Source: a virus (taxonomy: Duplodnaviria > Heunggongvirae > Uroviricota > Caudoviricetes). From it: 10,872 nucleotides of DNA. The stretch's first letter is position 1, and each line of letters starts with the position of its first letter. Made by a program: the position numbers and the translations under genes. The stretch lies in the IMG/VR virus record IMGVR_UViG_2737471833_000011; one strand, written 5' to 3'. Below the pieces are notes generated by a model. It worked only from the letters and a program-made list of their open reading frames with translations. It searched no databases and was not told the DNA's origin. This document shows positions 1,354 to 9,066 of this stretch, piece after piece.

Positions 1354-2235
1354 ATGAGCAAATTGTTCCAGTTCAAAAGTTGGTTGACCATAGAGGAAAC
1401 CGCAAACAGGTTAAGCACAACACTCGGTGAAAGGGTATCTGTAGCCGATTGCCTGCAATTGGCTGTAGAAGGCCACATTACAATTTCAGCGATATTGGAC
1501 GAAGGCCGTTACGCTATCGCTGCTCAAGTCATCAAAAACTCGCAACGAAGAGTTTTTGAAAAGTGGATTGTTGAAAATACTAACGAAGGTGCGGTAATTA
1601 GAACTCCTGCCGGTGATGAATTCTATACTAATGAACAATTGGATTATGAATACGAAGATATAGAAAGAGTCAGTGATGTTTTTCGTATTAATCATGGCAT
1701 ATACGATCTACCGATGGTTGGGGCTGAATCTTTAGATGTTATGCACGAGTTTGACCTTTCACGCGACAAGGTTCCCCGTGAATTTCACAACATGGAAGGT
1801 GCTTTCCTCTTAACAGAATTTGGTCTGGTGAATATTCTGAACGCGTTCAATGAATATGCCATCAAGTCAGATGAAAATGGCAAACCTAAACTGTACGACA
1901 AAGAATCACAGAGGTTTGTTGACTTTAGCCTCGATGGTTATCATCCCTTTTTCTATCCTGCTGATGGGCTGGGTAATGTCGAGTTCGTATTCAGAAAAGA
2001 AAATATTGCAGAATTTGAAAAGAAAACACTCAGTGATAACAACAGTCTCCTGAACCTCGATGAAAGCCTTTTACTGCTTGGCGCGGTGCTCAACGCTTTA
2101 AAGAAAGCCGAACCAACTTCTAAAAGGTGGACACAAGAAGCCCTCAAAGCAGAAATGCTGGATAGGGGTTTAAAATTAAGCTCCCGCTTACTGGATGAAT
2201 ATTTCTCATCAGCTAACAAATCTTTTAAATCATAA
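1354..2235 (+). CDS. Hypothetical 293-aa acidic protein, AT-rich cargo gene, function unknown
   Basis: ATG at 1354 with AAAGG 7 nt upstream; stop TAA 2233-2235. Visibly AT-richer than the flanking int and alpA genes (by inspection, not computed). No recognisable catalytic motif. The N-terminal stretch LTIEETANRLSTTLGERVSVADCLQL is loosely HTH-like. Confidence 0.8.
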   Translation: MSKLFQFKSWLTIEETANRLSTTLGERVSVADCLQLAVEGHITISAILDEGRYAIAAQVIKNSQRRVFEKWIVENTNEGAVIRTPAGDEFYTNEQLDYEYEDIERVSDVFRINHGIYDLPMVGAESLDVMHEFDLSRDKVPREFHNMEGAFLLTEFGLVNILNAFNEYAIKSDENGKPKLYDKESQRFVDFSLDGYHPFFYPADGLGNVEFVFRKENIAEFEKKTLSDNNSLLNLDESLLLLGAVLNALKKAEPTSKRWTQEALKAEMLDRGLKLSSRLLDEYFSSANKSFKS

Positions 2236-2243
2236 AGATAATT

Positions 2244-2272
2244 TCGCAACGAAAATCCATTTTTCGTTGCGA
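2244..2272. other. Perfect 12-bp stem / 5-nt loop hairpin between the cargo gene and alpA
   Basis: TCGCAACGAAAA (2244-2255), loop TCCAT, TTTTCGTTGCGA (2261-2272). It begins 9 nt after the cargo stop. No clear T-run follows on the + strand. Confidence 0.45.
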
Positions 2273-2340
2273 TGACATCTAATCCCCCTGCTCACATGAT
2301 TACCGTAACTTCAACAGCTATCACAGGAGTTACAGAACAT

Positions 2341-2559
2341 ATGACAGCACACAAGCCAGCATCATCAGCTATCCCAACAACTGGATACATCCGTCGCTTT
2401 CGCATGCCGGAATTGCTAGGTGTTTCACTGCCTACTATTGATAGATGGGTTAAAAATGGCACTCTTCCACGCCCAGTGAAGCTAACAGATAACGTGACTG
2501 CGTTTGATGCGGTGGAAATTAATAACTGGCTGGCAGAACGTCGGGGAAAGGTGGCCTGA
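2341..2559 (+). CDS. alpA: AlpA/Vis-family helix-turn-helix prophage regulator (excisionase-like)
   Basis: The core MPELLGVSLPTIDRWVKNGTLPRPVKLTDNVTAFDAVEINNWL matches the AlpA/Vis HTH pattern (L..T.YR..K.G.FPKPVKLG...W...E...W). Start chosen at ATG 2341 (AGGAG at 2325-2329); in-frame ATGs at 2272 and 2296 lack an SD. The stop TGA 2557-2559 overlaps the next start (TGATG). Confidence 0.8.
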   Translation: MTAHKPASSAIPTTGYIRRFRMPELLGVSLPTIDRWVKNGTLPRPVKLTDNVTAFDAVEINNWLAERRGKVA

Positions 2560-2990
2560 TGGAAAAGAAAAACCGCCCATTACAGGCGGCTAATTCAGAT
2601 ATTCGCGTATCTGATATTACGCCCCTTACAAAATCCCTTCAAGCACCAAAGCGCACACCGAAAAAGCATCGTGCCCGAGTCTATATGCTGCGTACTGGTA
2701 TAGAGGGATGGACAGAAAATGACATTCTTCGCTACTGCCGTCTGTCTTCTGGTCGTAACTATGCAACAGAGTTAGAACGCCAGCTTGGAATCACTCTGGA
2801 GCGTATCGACGAAAAGAATCCTGATGGTATCGGAACACACCTTCGCTACCGTTTCTCCTGCCGTGGTGATGTTCTGAAAGTGATCACTCATGTTAACCAT
2901 CTTGCGAACATAAATGATCACAACGGACTTTCTCAGCAGGAAATTGCCGACATTCTGAAACTCTACCCGGACGCGTTTAACGCCGCCTAA
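2559..2990 (+). CDS. Hypothetical protein, 143 aa
   Basis: ATG 2559 overlaps the alpA stop, indicating translational coupling. Stop TAA 2988-2990. No motif recognised. Confidence 0.75.
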   Translation: MEKKNRPLQAANSDIRVSDITPLTKSLQAPKRTPKKHRARVYMLRTGIEGWTENDILRYCRLSSGRNYATELERQLGITLERIDEKNPDGIGTHLRYRFSCRGDVLKVITHVNHLANINDHNGLSQQEIADILKLYPDAFNAA

Positions 2991-3002
2991 CGGAGACTAA
3001 AA

Positions 3003-3836
3003 ATGAACATCGAAAAAAGCAGATTAATTTCTGAGGCCGCCCCTCATCTGAACGCCTATCAGGGCACAATTAACGGTAATGAATTTGCCGCAATTGTCCC
3101 GGTTATTTCTGGTCATATAGGTGGGCGTGAAACCAATATTGTTAGCGCAAAAGCGTTACACAAAGCGTTGGGCGTGGGAAAAGACTTCTCTACATGGATC
3201 ACTGATCGCATCTCTGAATATGACTTCACCATTGGTCACGATTACTCAGTCCATAAAACAATTTCCCCAAATTTGGGGAAAAGCCCGAATGGCGCGGCTT
3301 ACAGCAAGATTAAGCACTCTGGCAGACCCGGCAAAGACTATCTGTTAAGTGTCGGAATGGCGAAAGAACTGGCAATGATCGAACGCAATGATCAGGGTCG
3401 CGCTATCCGCCGTTATTTCATCCAGTGCGAGGAAGAATTACAGCGTAGCGTGCCTGAAATCGCCGCCCGCTATCGTCGCCAGCTAAAAGCCCGTATCAGT
3501 GCCGCAAACAACTTTAAGCCAATGTGCGATGCGCTGAATATGGCCCGTGCCGAGATGGGTAAAGCGACGCAGCAGCGCCACTACAGCAACGAGAGCAACA
3601 TGATCGCCCGTATCGTGCTGGGTGGCATGACGGCGAAGCAGTGGGCGCAGGCAAATGGCATTACTGGCGAACCACGGGACAGCATGAACGCAGCACAGCT
3701 TGAACACCTCGCCTATCTCGAAAGCACCAATATCACGTTAATTGATATGGGCATGGAATATGAGCAGCGCAAAGGAGAACTCACCCGCCTGTCGCAACGC
3801 TGGCTCGCTAAACGTCTGGAGGTAAACCATGCGTAA
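3003..3836 (+). CDS. Putative phage antirepressor-like protein (Ant/KilAC/Rha-type motifs), 277 aa
   Basis: GGAG at 2992-2995, 7 nt before the ATG. The segments SAKALHKALGVGKDFSTWITDRI and KDYLLSVGMAKELAMIERNDQGRAIRRYFIQCEEEL resemble phage antirepressor / Rha-type regulators. Family assignment is by eye only. Confidence 0.8.
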   Translation: MNIEKSRLISEAAPHLNAYQGTINGNEFAAIVPVISGHIGGRETNIVSAKALHKALGVGKDFSTWITDRISEYDFTIGHDYSVHKTISPNLGKSPNGAAYSKIKHSGRPGKDYLLSVGMAKELAMIERNDQGRAIRRYFIQCEEELQRSVPEIAARYRRQLKARISAANNFKPMCDALNMARAEMGKATQQRHYSNESNMIARIVLGGMTAKQWAQANGITGEPRDSMNAAQLEHLAYLESTNITLIDMGMEYEQRKGELTRLSQRWLAKRLEVNHA

Positions 3837-4011
3837 CCATAATCCGATGCCGGGAAGCCGTTACAAGGACAGTCACGGGGCTGTAGTGACCGTACAGCGC
3901 GTCGAGCATAACCGAGTGACCTTTTACCGCGAGGGCTATCAGTCGCCATGTGTTCAGCCTTTGGAGAGATTCGTTAATGAGTTCGTGGAGGTGCGCCGTG
4001 ATACTGAATGA
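3829..4011 (+). CDS. Small hypothetical protein, 60 aa
   Basis: ATG 3829 sits inside the CCATGCGTAA junction with the upstream stop; GGAGGT lies 5 nt upstream. Stop TGA 4009-4011. Confidence 0.6.
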   Translation: MRNHNPMPGSRYKDSHGAVVTVQRVEHNRVTFYREGYQSPCVQPLERFVNEFVEVRRDTE

Positions 4012-4915
4012 ACCTGCCGCCCAGAAAGAAGCCTTTAATCTGGCTAGCCTGTTAACAAATGTTAACCCTTACAACCTTATAAAACCAAAGGTCGCGAACG
4101 GCTGCCTGTTATCAATTGTTATGGTTAATGACTTAGCAAAACTTAGCCTGAACCTCACAAAACCTGACATCCACGCACGGGGAATGACGACAAATGATGA
4201 CATTTTAAACCAAGAAATAATCACCTCTAAAAAGCTGATTGTGGGGAATAAATTCCCCCTGCTGGCTGGTGGTATGAACTGGATTGCTACCGTTGTGAAC
4301 CGTTCCACATCGACTTTCGCGACAAATACGCGTGCGCTGGAAGATTTATTAGGGGTCGTTACGCGAGAAGGTGAGTATTCGGAGTCCATAAAAAAGGGCA
4401 GTGCCAGCAGGTCGGACCACCAGCACCGGAAACCGTGTTATATTTCCCCCGCTGGTGTAAATCCACCAGCCGGGCGTGAGAACCTGTTTAATGAGCAAAA
4501 GGCGACACAGACGCGCCCAGCGTCTTTTTTTGTGTCATGCCATCGCGCAACCATACCCAGCGGCAAAGCCCGCACAGTATCTATGGTGGCGCTGGTGGGG
4601 CAGCCGAAAGGCTGGCCGGTTTCCTTTTGCGCCGGTTTTCTCACCCCTGCCAGCGTCACCGCCCCTTATGAGTGTGAGAACTCAGGCGGTGACTCCTTAA
4701 ATTTGCAAAAGGAGGCTGCCATCATGGCTACTACCCCTACCCAAAAACCGCAATTTATCTGGATTATCGCCGCAGTTCGCCGCGATTGCCCGACAATTAC
4801 CGCCAAAATTCATCATATCGCCGCAGAGACTGAGCAGGAAGCACGCCGCTCACTGGCACGCGAGCACGTCACCTTTTTCGCAGGCCGTATCCGTCAGGAG
4901 GTGCGCCATGCGTAA
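3977..4915 (+). CDS. Alternative long reading of a stop-free frame (about 312 aa); may be a real gene, a fused/pseudogenised gene, or partly non-coding
   Basis: The frame is stop-free from 3950 to 4915. Candidate starts are ATG 3977 (GGAG at 3963-3966) and GTG 3998, the latter preceded by GGAGGTGCGCC, the same 11-mer that precedes ATG 4908. Against a single gene: hairpin 4448-4474, terminator-like 4509-4531, inverted repeat 4655-4693 and a strong internal SD+ATG at 4724 all fall inside it. Mutually exclusive with the 4724-4915 call. Confidence 0.35.
   Translation: MSSWRCAVILNEPAAQKEAFNLASLLTNVNPYNLIKPKVANGCLLSIVMVNDLAKLSLNLTKPDIHARGMTTNDDILNQEIITSKKLIVGNKFPLLAGGMNWIATVVNRSTSTFATNTRALEDLLGVVTREGEYSESIKKGSASRSDHQHRKPCYISPAGVNPPAGRENLFNEQKATQTRPASFFVSCHRATIPSGKARTVSMVALVGQPKGWPVSFCAGFLTPASVTAPYECENSGGDSLNLQKEAAIMATTPTQKPQFIWIIAAVRRDCPTITAKIHHIAAETEQEARRSLAREHVTFFAGRIRQEVRHA
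4509..4531 (+). terminator. Candidate rho-independent terminator (6-bp stem AGACGC/GCGTCT, loop GCCCA, then T7)
   Basis: Stem 4509-4514 pairs with 4520-4525, followed by the T-run 4525-4531. The short stem makes it weak to moderate. It is orientation-specific to the + strand. Confidence 0.4.
4655..4693. promoter_or_regulatory. 9-bp perfect inverted repeat GTCACCGCC / GGCGGTGAC with a nested 5-bp stem, 15 nt upstream of a strong SD
   Basis: Arms at 4655-4663 and 4685-4693. Inner stem TGAGT (4669-4673) / ACTCA (4680-4684). The SD AAGGAGG is at 4709-4715. Could be an operator or an RNA structure gating translation. Confidence 0.35.
4724..4915 (+). CDS. Small hypothetical protein, 63 aa (short alternative to the long frame)
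   Basis: Strong SD AAGGAGG (4709-4715) 8 nt before ATG 4724. Product MATTPTQKPQFIWIIAAVRRDCPTITAKIHHIAAETEQEARRSLAREHVTFFAGRIRQEVRHA. Stop TAA 4913-4915 lies inside the CCATGCGTAA junction. Confidence 0.5.
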   Translation: MATTPTQKPQFIWIIAAVRRDCPTITAKIHHIAAETEQEARRSLAREHVTFFAGRIRQEVRHA

Positions 4916-5087
4916 TTACTTCCGTGTTACTGGCTACGCCGTCAATAAGCGCGGGCTGACCGTTGGTATTCATTATGACATCACGGCGAGTCGTGCCAGA
5001 GAAGCCATTAGCCACGCCACTCTACAGGCGCAGCGTGATGGACTGACTCACGTCCGCATTACCTGCATTCAGGAGGTGGCAGCATGA
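4908..5087 (+). CDS. Small hypothetical protein, 59 aa (absent from the supplied ORF track, just under its apparent length cutoff)
   Basis: ATG 4908 preceded by GGAGG (4897-4901). Reads MRNYFRVTGYAVNKRGLTVGIHYDITASRAREAISHATLQAQRDGLTHVRITCIQEVAA. Stop TGA 5085-5087 overlaps the next start (ATGA at 5084). Confidence 0.55.
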   Translation: MRNYFRVTGYAVNKRGLTVGIHYDITASRAREAISHATLQAQRDGLTHVRITCIQEVAA

Positions 5088-5398
5088 GCATATACAACGA
5101 CTTATCACCACTTACGCTTGATGGTTGCACGCCTGACGACCTGAAAGGAATTGAGGAGCGAGCCAGTGAAGCCGCTAGCGATTTATTGGTGGGCGTTAGC
5201 GCCATTGGCAACCTCATGTTTTGGGCGGCAGCCAGTGAAGGCTATCCAGAGAAAGCCGCTAAGGATGATATGTACAGAATCGGCGCAATGTTGGGAACCG
5301 TCGGAGAGGTGGCGCGGGCGCTGAATGATACAGCGCAAAACGCTGCGTTTTTGATATTCGACGGTGAGAAAAAAACCAAAGGGAGGGCGGGCAAATGA
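5084..5398 (+). CDS. Hypothetical protein, 104 aa
   Basis: ATG 5084 with AGGAGG upstream. Start overlaps the upstream stop (ATGA), and its stop TGA 5396-5398 overlaps the next ATG 5395. Confidence 0.75.
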   Translation: MSIYNDLSPLTLDGCTPDDLKGIEERASEAASDLLVGVSAIGNLMFWAAASEGYPEKAAKDDMYRIGAMLGTVGEVARALNDTAQNAAFLIFDGEKKTKGRAGK

Positions 5399-5658
5399 AC
5401 ATTAATACCATCTATCGCCACCCGGCAGAGCTGGAAGCCGAAGCGATGTTATCCCGCGAGCAGGCTTACCCGGATGATTTTACGCTGGCAGACCGAACGG
5501 CAGAACGCATGACCCGCGCCCGCAATGGGCTGGCTCACGTTATGACCGAATTAGCCCCGCACATGGACGCAGAGCAAACAGCAGCCGTCCAGTGCTGGCT
5601 GATGAAGGTTTTGGCTATTGTCGATGCCACCCTGATTGATGCGGAGGGCAGCGCATGA
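5395..5658 (+). CDS. Hypothetical protein, 87 aa
   Basis: ATG 5395 preceded by GGGAGGG. ATGA overlaps at both ends link it to the neighbouring genes. Confidence 0.75.
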   Translation: MNINTIYRHPAELEAEAMLSREQAYPDDFTLADRTAERMTRARNGLAHVMTELAPHMDAEQTAAVQCWLMKVLAIVDATLIDAEGSA

Positions 5659-6290: not shown

Positions 6291-6632
6291 ATGATTACTA
6301 AAAATTTCCGACTTAATGCGCTGGCGAATAAGTATGCGTCGGCACTGTATAACCACATTACGGCTATCAATGGTGGCAATTACTTCATGGTTGACGCGGC
6401 AGGCCAGCAAATCCGTGTGGAAATCGTCAATGGAGTAAAAGGCGTTCGCAGCCTGATCGATAGCTACACACTGGCAGCCATGAAAGTGTCCTACCCGCAG
6501 TGGGAAACCGTGGGGATCGAGATTCTTGATCGTTGCGTCACTAATGACGGATTGACTGACGTAGGGCGCGAGATATGGCAAAGCATGGTTAAAGACATGG
6601 GCGCGACCGTGGCAGGGGGCAACCATGCGTAA
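6291..6632 (+). CDS. Hypothetical protein, 113 aa
   Basis: ATG 6291 preceded by a G-run SD (6282-6286). Stop TAA 6630-6632 lies inside the CCATGCGTAA junction that contains the primase start. Confidence 0.8.
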   Translation: MITKNFRLNALANKYASALYNHITAINGGNYFMVDAAGQQIRVEIVNGVKGVRSLIDSYTLAAMKVSYPQWETVGIEILDRCVTNDGLTDVGREIWQSMVKDMGATVAGGNHA

Positions 6633-9066
6633 TATCGACCTTATCCGCGAAGTGACCAGTGCCGCCGCCGGGCGCTGGCCTTATGTGCTGGCTGGATTGT
6701 CTATCGACGTGCCTGATTCATCGCGCCGCCATTCTCCATGCCCTGCATGTGGTGGAAAAGACCGTTTCAGATTCGACGACAACGGGCGCGGTAGCTTTAT
6801 CTGCAATCAGTGTGGCGCTGGTGACGGTTTAGACCTGATTAAGAAGGTGAACAACTGCGACACTACGGAGGCGGCACAGCTTGCCGCTGATGTGCTGGGT
6901 ATTGATTACCGGGCAGCGGAAACCGACCCGGTGGCAGCGAGCCATAGAAGAGAGCAACTGGAAGCTGACCGCCAGCAGCGTGAGCAGGAGCGCCAGAAAC
7001 AGGCAGCAGAGGATGCAGAGCAGCGAAGGGCTACGTTTGCCCGTCTGTATGCCGGAATGCGCCAGAGTGCCACACAGGGAGAATCTGATTACCTGCAATC
7101 AAAAGGGCTGACCGGGTTTAACTATCCGGTTATGCCGGATGGTTCGTTATTGCTGGAGCTGGTGGACGAATCCGGCGCAGTGGCAGCAGCGCAAACCATT
7201 ACACCGCAGGGAGAGAAGCGACTCCTGACAGGTTCAGCAAAGCGCGGGGCATATCACGCCGTAAACGCACCAGAACAGCCGCAGAGCGTATTAATTGCCG
7301 AGGGGCTGGCGACGGCCCTGTCCGTTCACCTGATGCGCCCGGACGCGCTTACAGTGGCGGCAATTGACGCCGGGAACCTGATCCACGTTGCCGGAGTAAT
7401 GCGCCGGAAACACCCGCAGTCGCAAATTATCATTGCCGCAGATAACGACCACCAGCAGGACGAACAGGCGAACACGGGCAAAGATGCCGCAGAGAAAGCC
7501 GCCTTATCCGTGGCTGGCTGGGTGGCGCTGCCGCCGACAGACTACAAAGCCGACTGGGACGACTACCGCCAGCAAAACGGGCTGGAAGTCGCTACGGCTG
7601 CGTTTAACGATTCGATGTACCAGATTCAGGGGGAAGCCGTGAAACCACAACTACAGGCCATTGTGGGCGGTAAATCCCGCCGTAAAGCCGAAGTCGGAGA
7701 TATTGCACAAATGGCAGCCAGCCAGAAAGCGCGGTTGCTTTCATCTCGCTGGGATATGTTGGCGGTCAACCCTGATAGTGGCACTGTTTACTGCTACGAA
7801 TCTGGCGTATGGGTGAAGCTACCAGACAGCGAATTAGAAAGGGTTATGGTGGCAATTTTCGACGAGCACGAAGCCCACTACACCGAAAAGGGGATTAAAT
7901 CGGTTGTCGCAACCATGAAGCTGCAAATACCGGTAATTGGTGAGCGGAGCGGGGATCTGATTGGTTTTGATAACGGCGTTTATGACCTCGCTACGCAGAC
8001 GTTTTCCGCCCATTCGCCGGGTAACTGGCTGATGAACCACAATGGGATCACCTACACCCCGCCAGCGCCGGGGGAAAATATTACCACCAGCGCCCCCAAT
8101 TTTACCCGTTGGCTGAATCATGCAACGGCTGGCGACCATCATAAGGCCGAGCGTATCAAAGCAGCCTTGTTTATGGTGCTGGCGAAGCGTCACGACTGGC
8201 AGCTATTCATTGAGATAACTGGCGAGGGCGGCAGTGGGAAATCCGTATTCAGCAGCATAGCAACCACGCTGGCAGGTGAACACAACACCGCCAGCGGTAG
8301 CATGATGACGCTGGACACCGCACGGGGACGGGCGCAGTTCGTAGGGAAAAGCCTGATTATTATGCCTGACCAGACCCGCTACGTTGGAGAGGGTGCGGGG
8401 ATTAAAGCCATTACGGGCGGCGATCCGGTAGAGATTGATGGGAAATATGAAAAGCAGTTCACAACCGTGATAAATGCCGTTGTTATGGCAACCAATAACG
8501 AGCCGATGACATTCACGGAGCGAAACGGGGGCATTGCCCGCCGCCGCGTGATATTCCCGTTTAATAACCCGGTATCAGACGCAGACAAAGACCCGGATTT
8601 AACCGCAAAAATCAGGCGAGAAATCCCGGTGATTATCCGCCACCTGCTAACCACCTTTGCCGACCAGAACAAAGCAAAGGCACTATTACTAGAGCAGCGC
8701 GATTCGCAGGAGGCGCTAGAGGTTAAACGCGGCACAGATCCGGTTATCGATATGTGTGCGGCACTTTTTTTCATGAACGAACCCAAAGGCATGATGATGG
8801 GCGGAGGTACATGGGCAGGCCAGCCAGAGCCTAGGACGTATCTTTATCATCTTTATCTGGCGTTTATGGAGTATCACGGTTTGGGTAAACCGCTTTCCGT
8901 CAATAAGTTTTCACGCGCCATAAAATCAGCAGCAAAAGAGTACCGAGCCAGCTACCTGACGAGAAGCATTAACGGCAGAGCGCAAACCAACGTTGGCTAT
9001 AACGAGAAGGCTGAGGAGTTCATGCCACGCGCTTACGGTGTGGAGAGCGGGCAGAGTGATGATTGA
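6625..9066 (+). CDS. P4 alpha-like bifunctional DNA primase / helicase (zinc ribbon + Toprim + P-loop NTPase)
   Basis: 813-aa ORF. N-terminal zinc-ribbon cysteines CPACGG...CNQCG. Toprim-like acidic motif IIIAADNDHQQDEQ. Walker A GEGGSGKS at nt 8221-8244. Domain order is as in P4 alpha and PICI pri-rep proteins. Stop TGA 9064-9066. Confidence 0.93.
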   Translation: MRNIDLIREVTSAAAGRWPYVLAGLSIDVPDSSRRHSPCPACGGKDRFRFDDNGRGSFICNQCGAGDGLDLIKKVNNCDTTEAAQLAADVLGIDYRAAETDPVAASHRREQLEADRQQREQERQKQAAEDAEQRRATFARLYAGMRQSATQGESDYLQSKGLTGFNYPVMPDGSLLLELVDESGAVAAAQTITPQGEKRLLTGSAKRGAYHAVNAPEQPQSVLIAEGLATALSVHLMRPDALTVAAIDAGNLIHVAGVMRRKHPQSQIIIAADNDHQQDEQANTGKDAAEKAALSVAGWVALPPTDYKADWDDYRQQNGLEVATAAFNDSMYQIQGEAVKPQLQAIVGGKSRRKAEVGDIAQMAASQKARLLSSRWDMLAVNPDSGTVYCYESGVWVKLPDSELERVMVAIFDEHEAHYTEKGIKSVVATMKLQIPVIGERSGDLIGFDNGVYDLATQTFSAHSPGNWLMNHNGITYTPPAPGENITTSAPNFTRWLNHATAGDHHKAERIKAALFMVLAKRHDWQLFIEITGEGGSGKSVFSSIATTLAGEHNTASGSMMTLDTARGRAQFVGKSLIIMPDQTRYVGEGAGIKAITGGDPVEIDGKYEKQFTTVINAVVMATNNEPMTFTERNGGIARRRVIFPFNNPVSDADKDPDLTAKIRREIPVIIRHLLTTFADQNKAKALLLEQRDSQEALEVKRGTDPVIDMCAALFFMNEPKGMMMGGGTWAGQPEPRTYLYHLYLAFMEYHGLGKPLSVNKFSRAIKSAAKEYRASYLTRSINGRAQTNVGYNEKAEEFMPRAYGVESGQSDD

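Follow-up and report, generated by a model that had tools for sequence, protein, structure and literature searches.

Regulatory RNAs and a conserved long open frame share the same DNA in a probable P4-type immunity region of a satellite island

In phage P4 (reference record X02534, our locus L004; immunity region 2304-2903), the ATG of eta (ORF199) overlaps the stop codon of vis, and the 199-codon frame holds the promoter PLE, seqA, the CI RNA and seqC, with the 65-codon kil gene nested in the frame at the eta end. Translation of eta from a regulated promoter further upstream overrides P4 immunity by suppressing the termination specific to it, as summarised in PMC10111431, which cites Forti et al., 1999. 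The isrK-orf45-anrP locus of the Salmonella prophage Gifsy-1 has an IsrK leader with a leaky terminator, needs translation of a short open reading frame (ORF) for what lies downstream, and shows more nucleotide than amino-acid conservation (PMC4825925). There the short isrK RNA acts in trans to activate translation, an antirepressor and after it the AntQ antiterminator are produced, and no upstream-initiated long frame has been described for this locus. A third system is the immI operon of P1 and P7, which consists of c4, icd and ant. In P1 the a' and b' loops reportedly pair with a1b1 and a2b2, with a2b2 covering the icd ribosome-binding site, and Icd is said to be a small cell-division inhibitor that is required for downstream expression. 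Here we compare these systems with a locus at 3998-4915 of a 10,872-nucleotide stretch of DNA (IMG/VR virus record IMGVR_UViG_2737471833_000011, Caudoviricetes; hereafter the window), which is an integrative island of the P4-satellite or phage-inducible chromosomal island (PICI) type. We consider it likely that this locus is a P4-type satellite immunity-control region in which the same DNA is used two ways, as a set of regulatory RNAs and as a long frame that is kept open, and in which translation from the upstream operon overrides RNA-mediated termination.

The locus agrees with P4 in the order and spacing of all elements. Both have an internal constitutive promoter, in the window a predicted one, a seqA-like leader with a T-run terminator, a C4/CI RNA and a downstream target lying over a Shine-Dalgarno (SD) sequence, and the frame in the window likewise ends with a nested gene, here icd-like. 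On the plus strand, an IsrK/seqA-like leader RNA at 4451-4531 matched Rfam family RF01394 with 56.7 bits (gathering score 50), and a C4/CI-type antisense RNA at 4579-4666 matched RF01695 with 79.6 bits (gathering score 45) over model positions 1-87 of 87 (E = 9.8e-15). The Rfam scan that a preliminary description of this DNA had proposed thus placed both isrK and C4 above their gathering scores. The c4-a1b1 model RF03163 scored 37.5 bits at 4438-4490, under its gathering score of 46.7, but the a1/b1 complementarity is present all the same, and P4 also stays just under that score, with 44.1 bits. The same three Rfam matches occur in P4 in the same order, inside a 214-codon open frame. P1 and P7 share the two families C4 and isrK/a1b1 with the window, and the literature equates IsrK with P4 seqA and C4 with the P4 CI RNA (PMC3632133; PMC4825925). 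The preliminary description had placed this region correctly as the counterpart of the P4 vis-to-alpha interval with its RNA-based immunity, and the structured regulatory RNA or attenuator that it offered as one of three options is right for 4438-4723.

Within the leader, hairpin 1 spans 4451-4470, hairpin 2 (4471-4486) bears a1 (GUGAGAA, 4476-4482) in its loop, and the target b1 (GCAAAAGG) lies at 4495-4502. A bulged hairpin previously noted at 4448-4474 has arms at 4447-4457 and 4464-4474 that are 91% complementary, and the terminator noted at 4509-4531 is indeed an intrinsic one, with a stem at 4509-4525 and then seven T (4525-4531). Between terminator and C4 lies a plus-strand spacer of 47 nt (4532-4578), whose sequence and length vary among relatives. 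Variants with a 62-nt spacer (L007, L009, L013, L019, L020, L025 and others; about 2795-2856) carry another T-run and, in a small hairpin immediately 5' of C4, GGTTATAATCC, which is a perfect TATAAT and is missing from the 47-nt spacer of the window; GGTTATAATCC may be a second promoter for C4 in those variants.

RNAs of the C4 family are cut out of their leader transcript, by RNase P and others, as stable molecules of about 80 nt that give immunity. C4 of the window folds with a long closing stem around two inner hairpins. Its minimum free energy (MFE) structure is the Rfam consensus, at -48.2 kcal/mol (z -4.8), and none of 200 shuffles folded as well. Site b' (UCCUUUUGC, 4622-4630) lies in the loop of the second hairpin and is the exact complement of target b2 (GCAAAAGGA, 4705-4713), while site a' is UUCUCAC(CCC) at 4638-4647. 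The UUCUCAC of a' (4638-4644) complements GTGAGAA both at a1 (4476-4482) and at a2 (4674-4680), and exact complementarity extends over 4638-4647 with 4473-4482. Among 17 distinct immunity types the a and b sites covary three ways. When C4 cores are ranked as duplex partners, the cognate core comes first for its a1b1 in 15 of the 17 types and for its a2b2 in 12. Between the window and P4 the b specificity site is different, whereas the a sites are identical. In the predicted fold of 4451-4730 (z = -4.6), a1b1 and the C4 loops pair in cis. The inactive structure reported for the isrK locus of Gifsy-1 is similar, and there too the leader pairs in cis with a C4-like segment (PMC4825925).

The preliminary description had also reported a 9-bp perfect inverted repeat and called it operator-like. 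The repeat is there, with arms at 4655-4663 and 4685-4693, but we reject a DNA operator at 4655-4693. Changes on one side of a pair are compensated on the other, some of the pairs are G-U, which would not match in double-stranded DNA, the 5' arm doubles as the 3' strand of the stem that closes C4, and a2 lies in the loop. The repeat is instead a conserved plus-strand RNA hairpin that displays a2, with an inner stem (4669-4673 with 4680-4684) that puts the GUGAGAA of a2 at the loop. Across 20 sequences, 90% of the alignment cells were paired and nine of the 14 pairs had changed on both sides, with G-U pairs among them; the arms occur as CACCGCC/GGCGGTG, CACCACC/GGTGGTG, CATCACC/GGTGATG and UAUCGCC/GGCGAUA. 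None of 500 shuffles matched the percentage paired, either of two counts of both-sided changes or the covariation score, and sliding the partners against each other destroyed the signal. A fifth measure, the count of extra pair types, was unexceptional against shuffles.

Immediately 3' of this hairpin, the plus-strand segment 4694-4715 appears as a site of control over icd translation initiation: an anti-SD sequence, UCCUU (4694-4698), can pair with AAGGA (4709-4713), and b2 overlaps the icd SD GGAGG (4711-4715), which stands 8 nt before the ATG at 4724 and makes up the strong start signal reported earlier. The icd-like gene itself (4724-4915, plus strand, 63 codons) is a homologue of P4 kil and is read in the same frame as the long ORF. 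Its product matched NF033153, the NCBIfam family of Icd-like cell-division inhibitors, with 70.7 bits against a cutoff of 25, and P4 kil matched the same family with 73.3 bits. Orthologues of icd are under purifying selection (dN/dS 0.05-0.35). The icd stretch also has the greatest excess of C over G in the profiled interval 3400-5400 (GC skew -0.28).

The predicted counterpart of PLE was placed by an alignment, anchored on the isrK start, of 25 distinct promoter-region sequences drawn from the window, P4 and 25 related loci. Across genera the promoter is conserved as AAAAAAGGGC-TTGCCG-N18-TATGGT-N6-+1, and P4 has TTGCCT-N18-TATAGT, of which the GenBank record annotates the consensus -10; we identify this P4 sequence with PLE. 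The annotated TATAGT aligns in the window with an extended -10 element, TGtTATATT, at 4436-4444 of the plus strand, 6 nt before the predicted transcription start, G 4451. An A-tract, AAAAAAGGG (4390-4398, plus strand), resembles an UP element and reads in frame as A_AAA_AAG. It abuts the -35 hexamer TTGCCG in most relatives and is displaced in the window by a 15-nt insertion, which the loci L030 and L031 share together with the extended -10. On the minus strand at 4399-4428, just 5' of the promoter and within this insertion variant, a hairpin of 12 pairs with T6 after it has the look of a terminator (-22.1 kcal/mol), although it is not significant against shuffles. Transcripts of the internal promoter would exclude the start codon of the long frame, GTG 3998, and icd would be the sole translatable gene on them.

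All of these RNA elements lie inside one plus-strand ORF (3998-4915, 305 codons), the analogue of P4 eta, which ends at the icd/kil stop codon and whose start overlaps the end of the DUF4222 gene. The preliminary description had given a plus frame without stops from 3950 to 4915; the ORF listing has a 321-aa ORF at exactly these positions, in a stop-free run that begins at 3920. Two starts had been put forward, ATG 3977 and GTG 3998. Both are in frame, but GTG 3998 is the likelier and ATG 3977 the less so, because GTG 3998 is preceded at 6 nt by the SD GGAGGT (3987-3992, plus strand), is the start chosen by PGAP in relatives and is replaced by ATG at the same position in distant homologues. 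It lies 14 nt before the DUF4222 stop. The whole SD-start cassette, GGAGGTGCGCC(G/A)TG at 3987-4000, recurs at 4897-4910 ahead of the gene after icd. From 3998 to 4723 the frame has 242 codons and no stop, while the other two plus frames have 16 and 19. Dinucleotide-preserving shuffles of this segment averaged 10.6 stops, and not one in 20,000 was free of them (P < 5e-5). The earlier claim that the AT-rich 5' part is open beyond chance also stood up in shuffles (141 codons, GC 0.47, P = 2e-4); the RNA part alone (95 codons) is stop-free with P = 0.044. A minus-strand ORF at 4069-4389 (106 aa) was considered as a gene and set aside; it has no Pfam or NCBIfam match, its codon score is about zero, and it is a shadow of the plus frame.

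The frame is kept open across related loci even where the DNA between its ends has changed. All nine of the E. coli loci compared keep the frame open between the GTG and the icd stop, in seven lengths (219-305 aa) and despite swaps of whole modules; deletions of 78 and 210 nt occur among these loci, and all net length differences are multiples of three. Wider sampling gave the same picture, in that all 22 species-level loci (21 species) have an ORF of at least 187 codons crossing a point about 120 nt 5' of the icd ATG, which is where C4 lies in the 18 loci that have it. The distance from the start of isrK to the start of C4 falls into six classes (98, 101, 125, 128, 140 and 185 nt), every one of them equal to 2 modulo 3. 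Among 23 distinct isrK-to-C4 segments, none has a stop in this frame, compared with 21 and 18 that have stops in the other two frames. The P1-like phages D6, RCS47 and JL22 served as a negative control: they carry the same two RNAs, but at a distance of 123 nt (0 modulo 3), with stops flanking C4 and an open run of 45 codons. The RNA sequences thus do not by themselves account for the open frame, since in P1-like phages it is broken although the RNAs are the same. As judged from these sequence comparisons, the frame is under selection and not open by chance.

Two further observations concern the frame in other loci. In a Stx2a-converting lambdoid phage (L036, 676-1584) the same frame is open from just 5' of isrK through C4 for 302 codons and runs on into a gene whose product is antirepressor-like; its isrK-to-C4 distance is 101 nt (2 modulo 3), which sets it apart from the P1-like phages. 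Four loci (L016, L018, L021 and L023, within 2000-3190; two from Tatumella, one from Rosenbergiella and one metagenome-assembled genome) have a 290-394-codon ORF in frame with icd and gave no C4 or isrK match at E <= 0.01. The RNA system of these four may be another one, or one that has diverged strongly.

Another explanation is an account by RNA alone, in which nothing but the RNAs and the nested icd has a function and the frame is an untranslated by-product of RNA conservation, base composition and annotation bias. Several features of the RNA part fit it: besides the stop statistic given above (P = 0.044), GC content is flat over its codon positions, its codon score is a weak +0.11 bits per codon, the Pfam family that covers it is the RNA region in translation, and upstream of icd we found neither amino-acid constraint nor a confident fold. 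We nevertheless regard this account as unlikely. It leaves the openness of the AT-rich 141 codons to chance, and it has to accommodate a frame that outlasts seven length variants and module swaps, a spacer held at 2 modulo 3 in six classes with stops avoided in this frame and frequent in the other two, and the loss of the open frame in P1-like phages that have the same RNAs. A strong SD and a start codon that overlaps the end of the upstream gene also speak against it, as do the P4 genetics, which give the translation of eta a function (PMC10111431).

A second explanation takes the product at face value, as a true multi-domain protein in which a functional N-terminal domain of 134 residues, a regulator in the style of the 'Bro network', is fused to Icd and the RNAs overlap a linker. 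This part of the ORF (3998-4399, plus strand, 134 codons) is AT-rich, variable and mosaic, with in-frame indels among relatives. In its favour, the codon scoring that had been proposed as a check gave +0.31 bits per codon here, with the gene-like order GC1>GC2<GC3, compared with the weak score of the RNA part. Full-length homologues also exist at 48-68% identity with recurring peptide motifs (LLSIVMV, NLTKPDI, MTTNDDI and ESIKKG), and PMC10111431 puts Phage_ASH proteins such as Eta in the Bro network.

The substitutions, however, do not look like those of the adjacent AntA and icd genes. Despite its coding-like composition, the N-terminal part shows no excess of changes at third positions: its 29 variable sites fall 11/9/9 by codon position, compared with 19/13/43 in the adjacent AntA gene, and nonsynonymous outnumber synonymous codon differences by 9:3, 12:1 and 16:4. 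A second N-terminal module, common to four genera, has dN/dS from 0.4 to more than 3, with second positions as variable as third. The icd gene of those loci has a dN/dS of 0.05-0.35, compared with about 0.5 to more than 1 in the N-terminal part. Alignment of orthologous islands, a check that the preliminary description had named, therefore found the frame kept open but saw no codon-level amino-acid constraint upstream of icd. Relatives lack 26 to 70 codons of the N-terminal part or have whole modules exchanged. The peptide motifs NLTKPDI and MTTNDDI, which recur in distant homologues, sometimes in several copies, are underlain by 10-bp tandem units (AACCTSACAA twice at 4151-4169; AATGAYGACA twice at 4183-4202); that N-terminal motifs coincide with these units and with the promoter A-tract suggests constraint at the DNA level, and the units may be protein-binding or DNA-bending sites. 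The N-terminal part matched no Pfam or NCBIfam family, and searches of 1.8 billion representative sequences returned only 18 relatives, of which those retrieved have the same gene context. AF2 modelling of the 305-aa product gave a pLDDT of about 25 for residues 1-249 (all below 50) and 56-70 for the Icd part from a single alignment of 40 rows used for both; with so few rows we take the low values as weak negative evidence. On balance we find this explanation improbable. The amino-acid sequence upstream of icd looks, from the comparisons made here, unconstrained, and of the proposed 'real protein of about 310 aa' the frame is real, while a folded and functional protein is doubtful for its first 240 residues.

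A programmed -1 frameshift at A_AAA_AAG (4390-4396) would yield a short product that terminates within the leader, at TGA 4477-4479. The heptamer is a classic dnaX-type slippery motif, and 22 of the 25 distinct promoter-region sequences have it in frame, the G falling at codon position 3. Such a frameshift is nevertheless very improbable, because the plus strand 3' of the heptamer has no structure better than shuffles (MFE -11.4 kcal/mol, z +0.59), P4 lacks the heptamer, and the conservation of the A-tract is explained by promoter function, given its fixed position 40 nt 5' of the leader start and its place beside the -35 hexamer in most loci. A gene fused by frameshift, another of the three options first offered for this stretch, was likewise discarded: icd/kil is nested in frame ancestrally, as in P4, and 12 of the 22 species-level loci share this nesting. 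In the remaining ten (L007, L010, L011, L013, L015, L017, L020, L022, L024 and L026; around 2850-3400) there is a 1-nt difference between C4 and the icd ATG, and the frame that crosses C4 is +1 relative to icd, a separate variant. That +1 frame is open over all of icd into the next gene, in ORFs of 215-619 codons, so that icd is overprinted in these ten loci. The +1 frame over icd is likewise free of stops in the window, from 4701 to 5087, and joins the next gene (ATG 4908), and only TAA 4698-4700 parts it from the upstream open stretch.

We therefore return to a P4-type control region in which RNAs and frame share the DNA. The three options had been listed as alternatives, and this exclusivity is what fails: two of them hold together, with real RNAs in a conserved frame that is probably translated as P4 eta is. 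In the immune state, only the internal promoter would fire, making the leader from about 4451, and read-through transcripts would contain C4. C4 would pair with a1b1 and a2b2, icd translation would be blocked, and transcription would end early, either at the intrinsic terminator or through Rho in the C-rich icd region, so that the small ORFs and the primase gene downstream stay off. When the upstream alpA-AntA-DUF4222 operon is instead the source of transcription, ribosomes initiating at 3998 would cross the leader, the terminator, C4 and a2b2. Such translation would prevent the structures and pairings from forming and bar Rho from the transcript, and expression would become insensitive to immunity, with the replication genes turned on. 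Upstream of icd, selection would then keep the act of translation and not the protein sequence.

Some points weigh against this reading. The function it gives to the frame is drawn from P4 and P1, and the translation of the frame and its effect on termination are carried over from P4 genetics by way of a second-hand summary. The frame in the window is about 110 codons longer upstream of the promoter, in AT-rich sequence, than that of P4, and its coupling is to a DUF4222 gene preceded by an AntA gene, whereas the P4 frame is coupled directly to vis/alpA. The promoter of the window is a variant with an extended -10 and, unlike P4, without the conserved -35 hexamer TTGCC(T/G); a consensus promoter scan of 3700-5000 called no plus-strand site, and the promoter came from alignment to P4 and from conservation across genera. 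The gene-like codon usage and the homologues of the N-terminal part mean that it may have a real protein function, and the substitution counts on which we rely are small (29 variable sites), in a mosaic whose recombination confuses comparisons of rate.

Narrower than the control region itself is a proposal about the roughly 240 codons before icd, and especially the 134-codon N-terminal part. These codons could be a 'translated spacer' selected only for openness, in which the peptide drifts, modules swap and codons come and go, under a strict modulo-3 rule that would apply to P4-like satellites and PICI-like islands across Enterobacterales. We put this forward tentatively, as something that could nearly as well be right as wrong.

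The locus belongs to the P4 eta/kil-CI class. P4 Eta and the window product are 41% identical (BLASTP), kil and the icd-like gene align with each other inside this match, and the DNA of the RNA part is 73-80% identical. The profile of Pfam family PF10554 (Phage_ASH; 'ash family protein' in PGAP) matches residues 148-250 of the long ORF (4439-4747) with 78.6 bits, and in P4 it matches Eta residues 22-146 (X02534 2367-2741), which is the promoter, leader, CI/C4 and seqC region in translation. Because the family is a translated RNA region, membership points to an immunity RNA region in this frame and not to a folded protein family. P4 epsilon matches PF25738 and not PF10554, although PMC8628076 used PF10554 to mark 'epsilon (Ash)' in P4-like satellites. 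Unlike in P4, no epsilon homologue follows the frame of the window. P1-like phages differ further, in that they have no frame through the RNAs; the downstream cargo is an antirepressor in P1 and P7, and small ORFs with a P4-family primase in the window. What is new within the class is a longer, mosaic N-terminal spacer, a different upstream partner and a variant promoter.

The surrounding genes are those of an island. An integrase gene (1-1260) is followed directly past its stop codon by an int-alpA RNA motif (1269-1335; RF02996, 66.1 bits against a gathering score of 35.8), which was found in several related loci as well. Then come an AlpA-type helix-turn-helix gene (2272-2559), the AntA gene (3003-3836), the DUF4222 gene (3829-4011, stop codon 4009-4011) and, past the long frame and several small ORFs, the P4-family primase gene (6625-9066). 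A promoter-like CTAACA-18-GATAAT occurs in 2213-2272, with a perfect 12-bp inverted repeat (2244-2272) immediately after it that touches the ATG of the alpA-like gene; site and repeat are a candidate for a regulated upstream ('PLL-like') promoter with an operator. The GC content drops to 0.38-0.43 across 4000-4300, from about 0.55 in the flanks. The locus is mosaic, since the first 400 bp of the long frame are 100% identical to several complete E. coli chromosomes, while from 4400 on the sequence is a different immunity type.

These results resolve an ambiguity of annotation, in that PGAP labels the whole frame 'Icd-like' or 'ash family' in hundreds of genomes and leaves the RNAs unmarked. The Phage_ASH profile, an 'epsilon' marker for P4 in the literature, tracks the immunity-RNA region. 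If the translated-spacer reading is true, the 'Ash' family and the 220-300 aa 'ash family / Icd-like' proteins of PGAP would not be proteins in the usual sense, and what PF10554 picks out when it is used as the 'epsilon' marker of P4-like satellites would be the immunity RNA locus. By comparative evidence the eta/kil device of P4, in which translating through the RNA immunity locus would serve as an override switch, is conserved well beyond P4, with its frame kept in the absence of amino-acid conservation and with a signature that P1-like phages lack, and the coordinates of its elements help to interpret immunity types, cross-talk with helpers and replication-gene expression in such islands.

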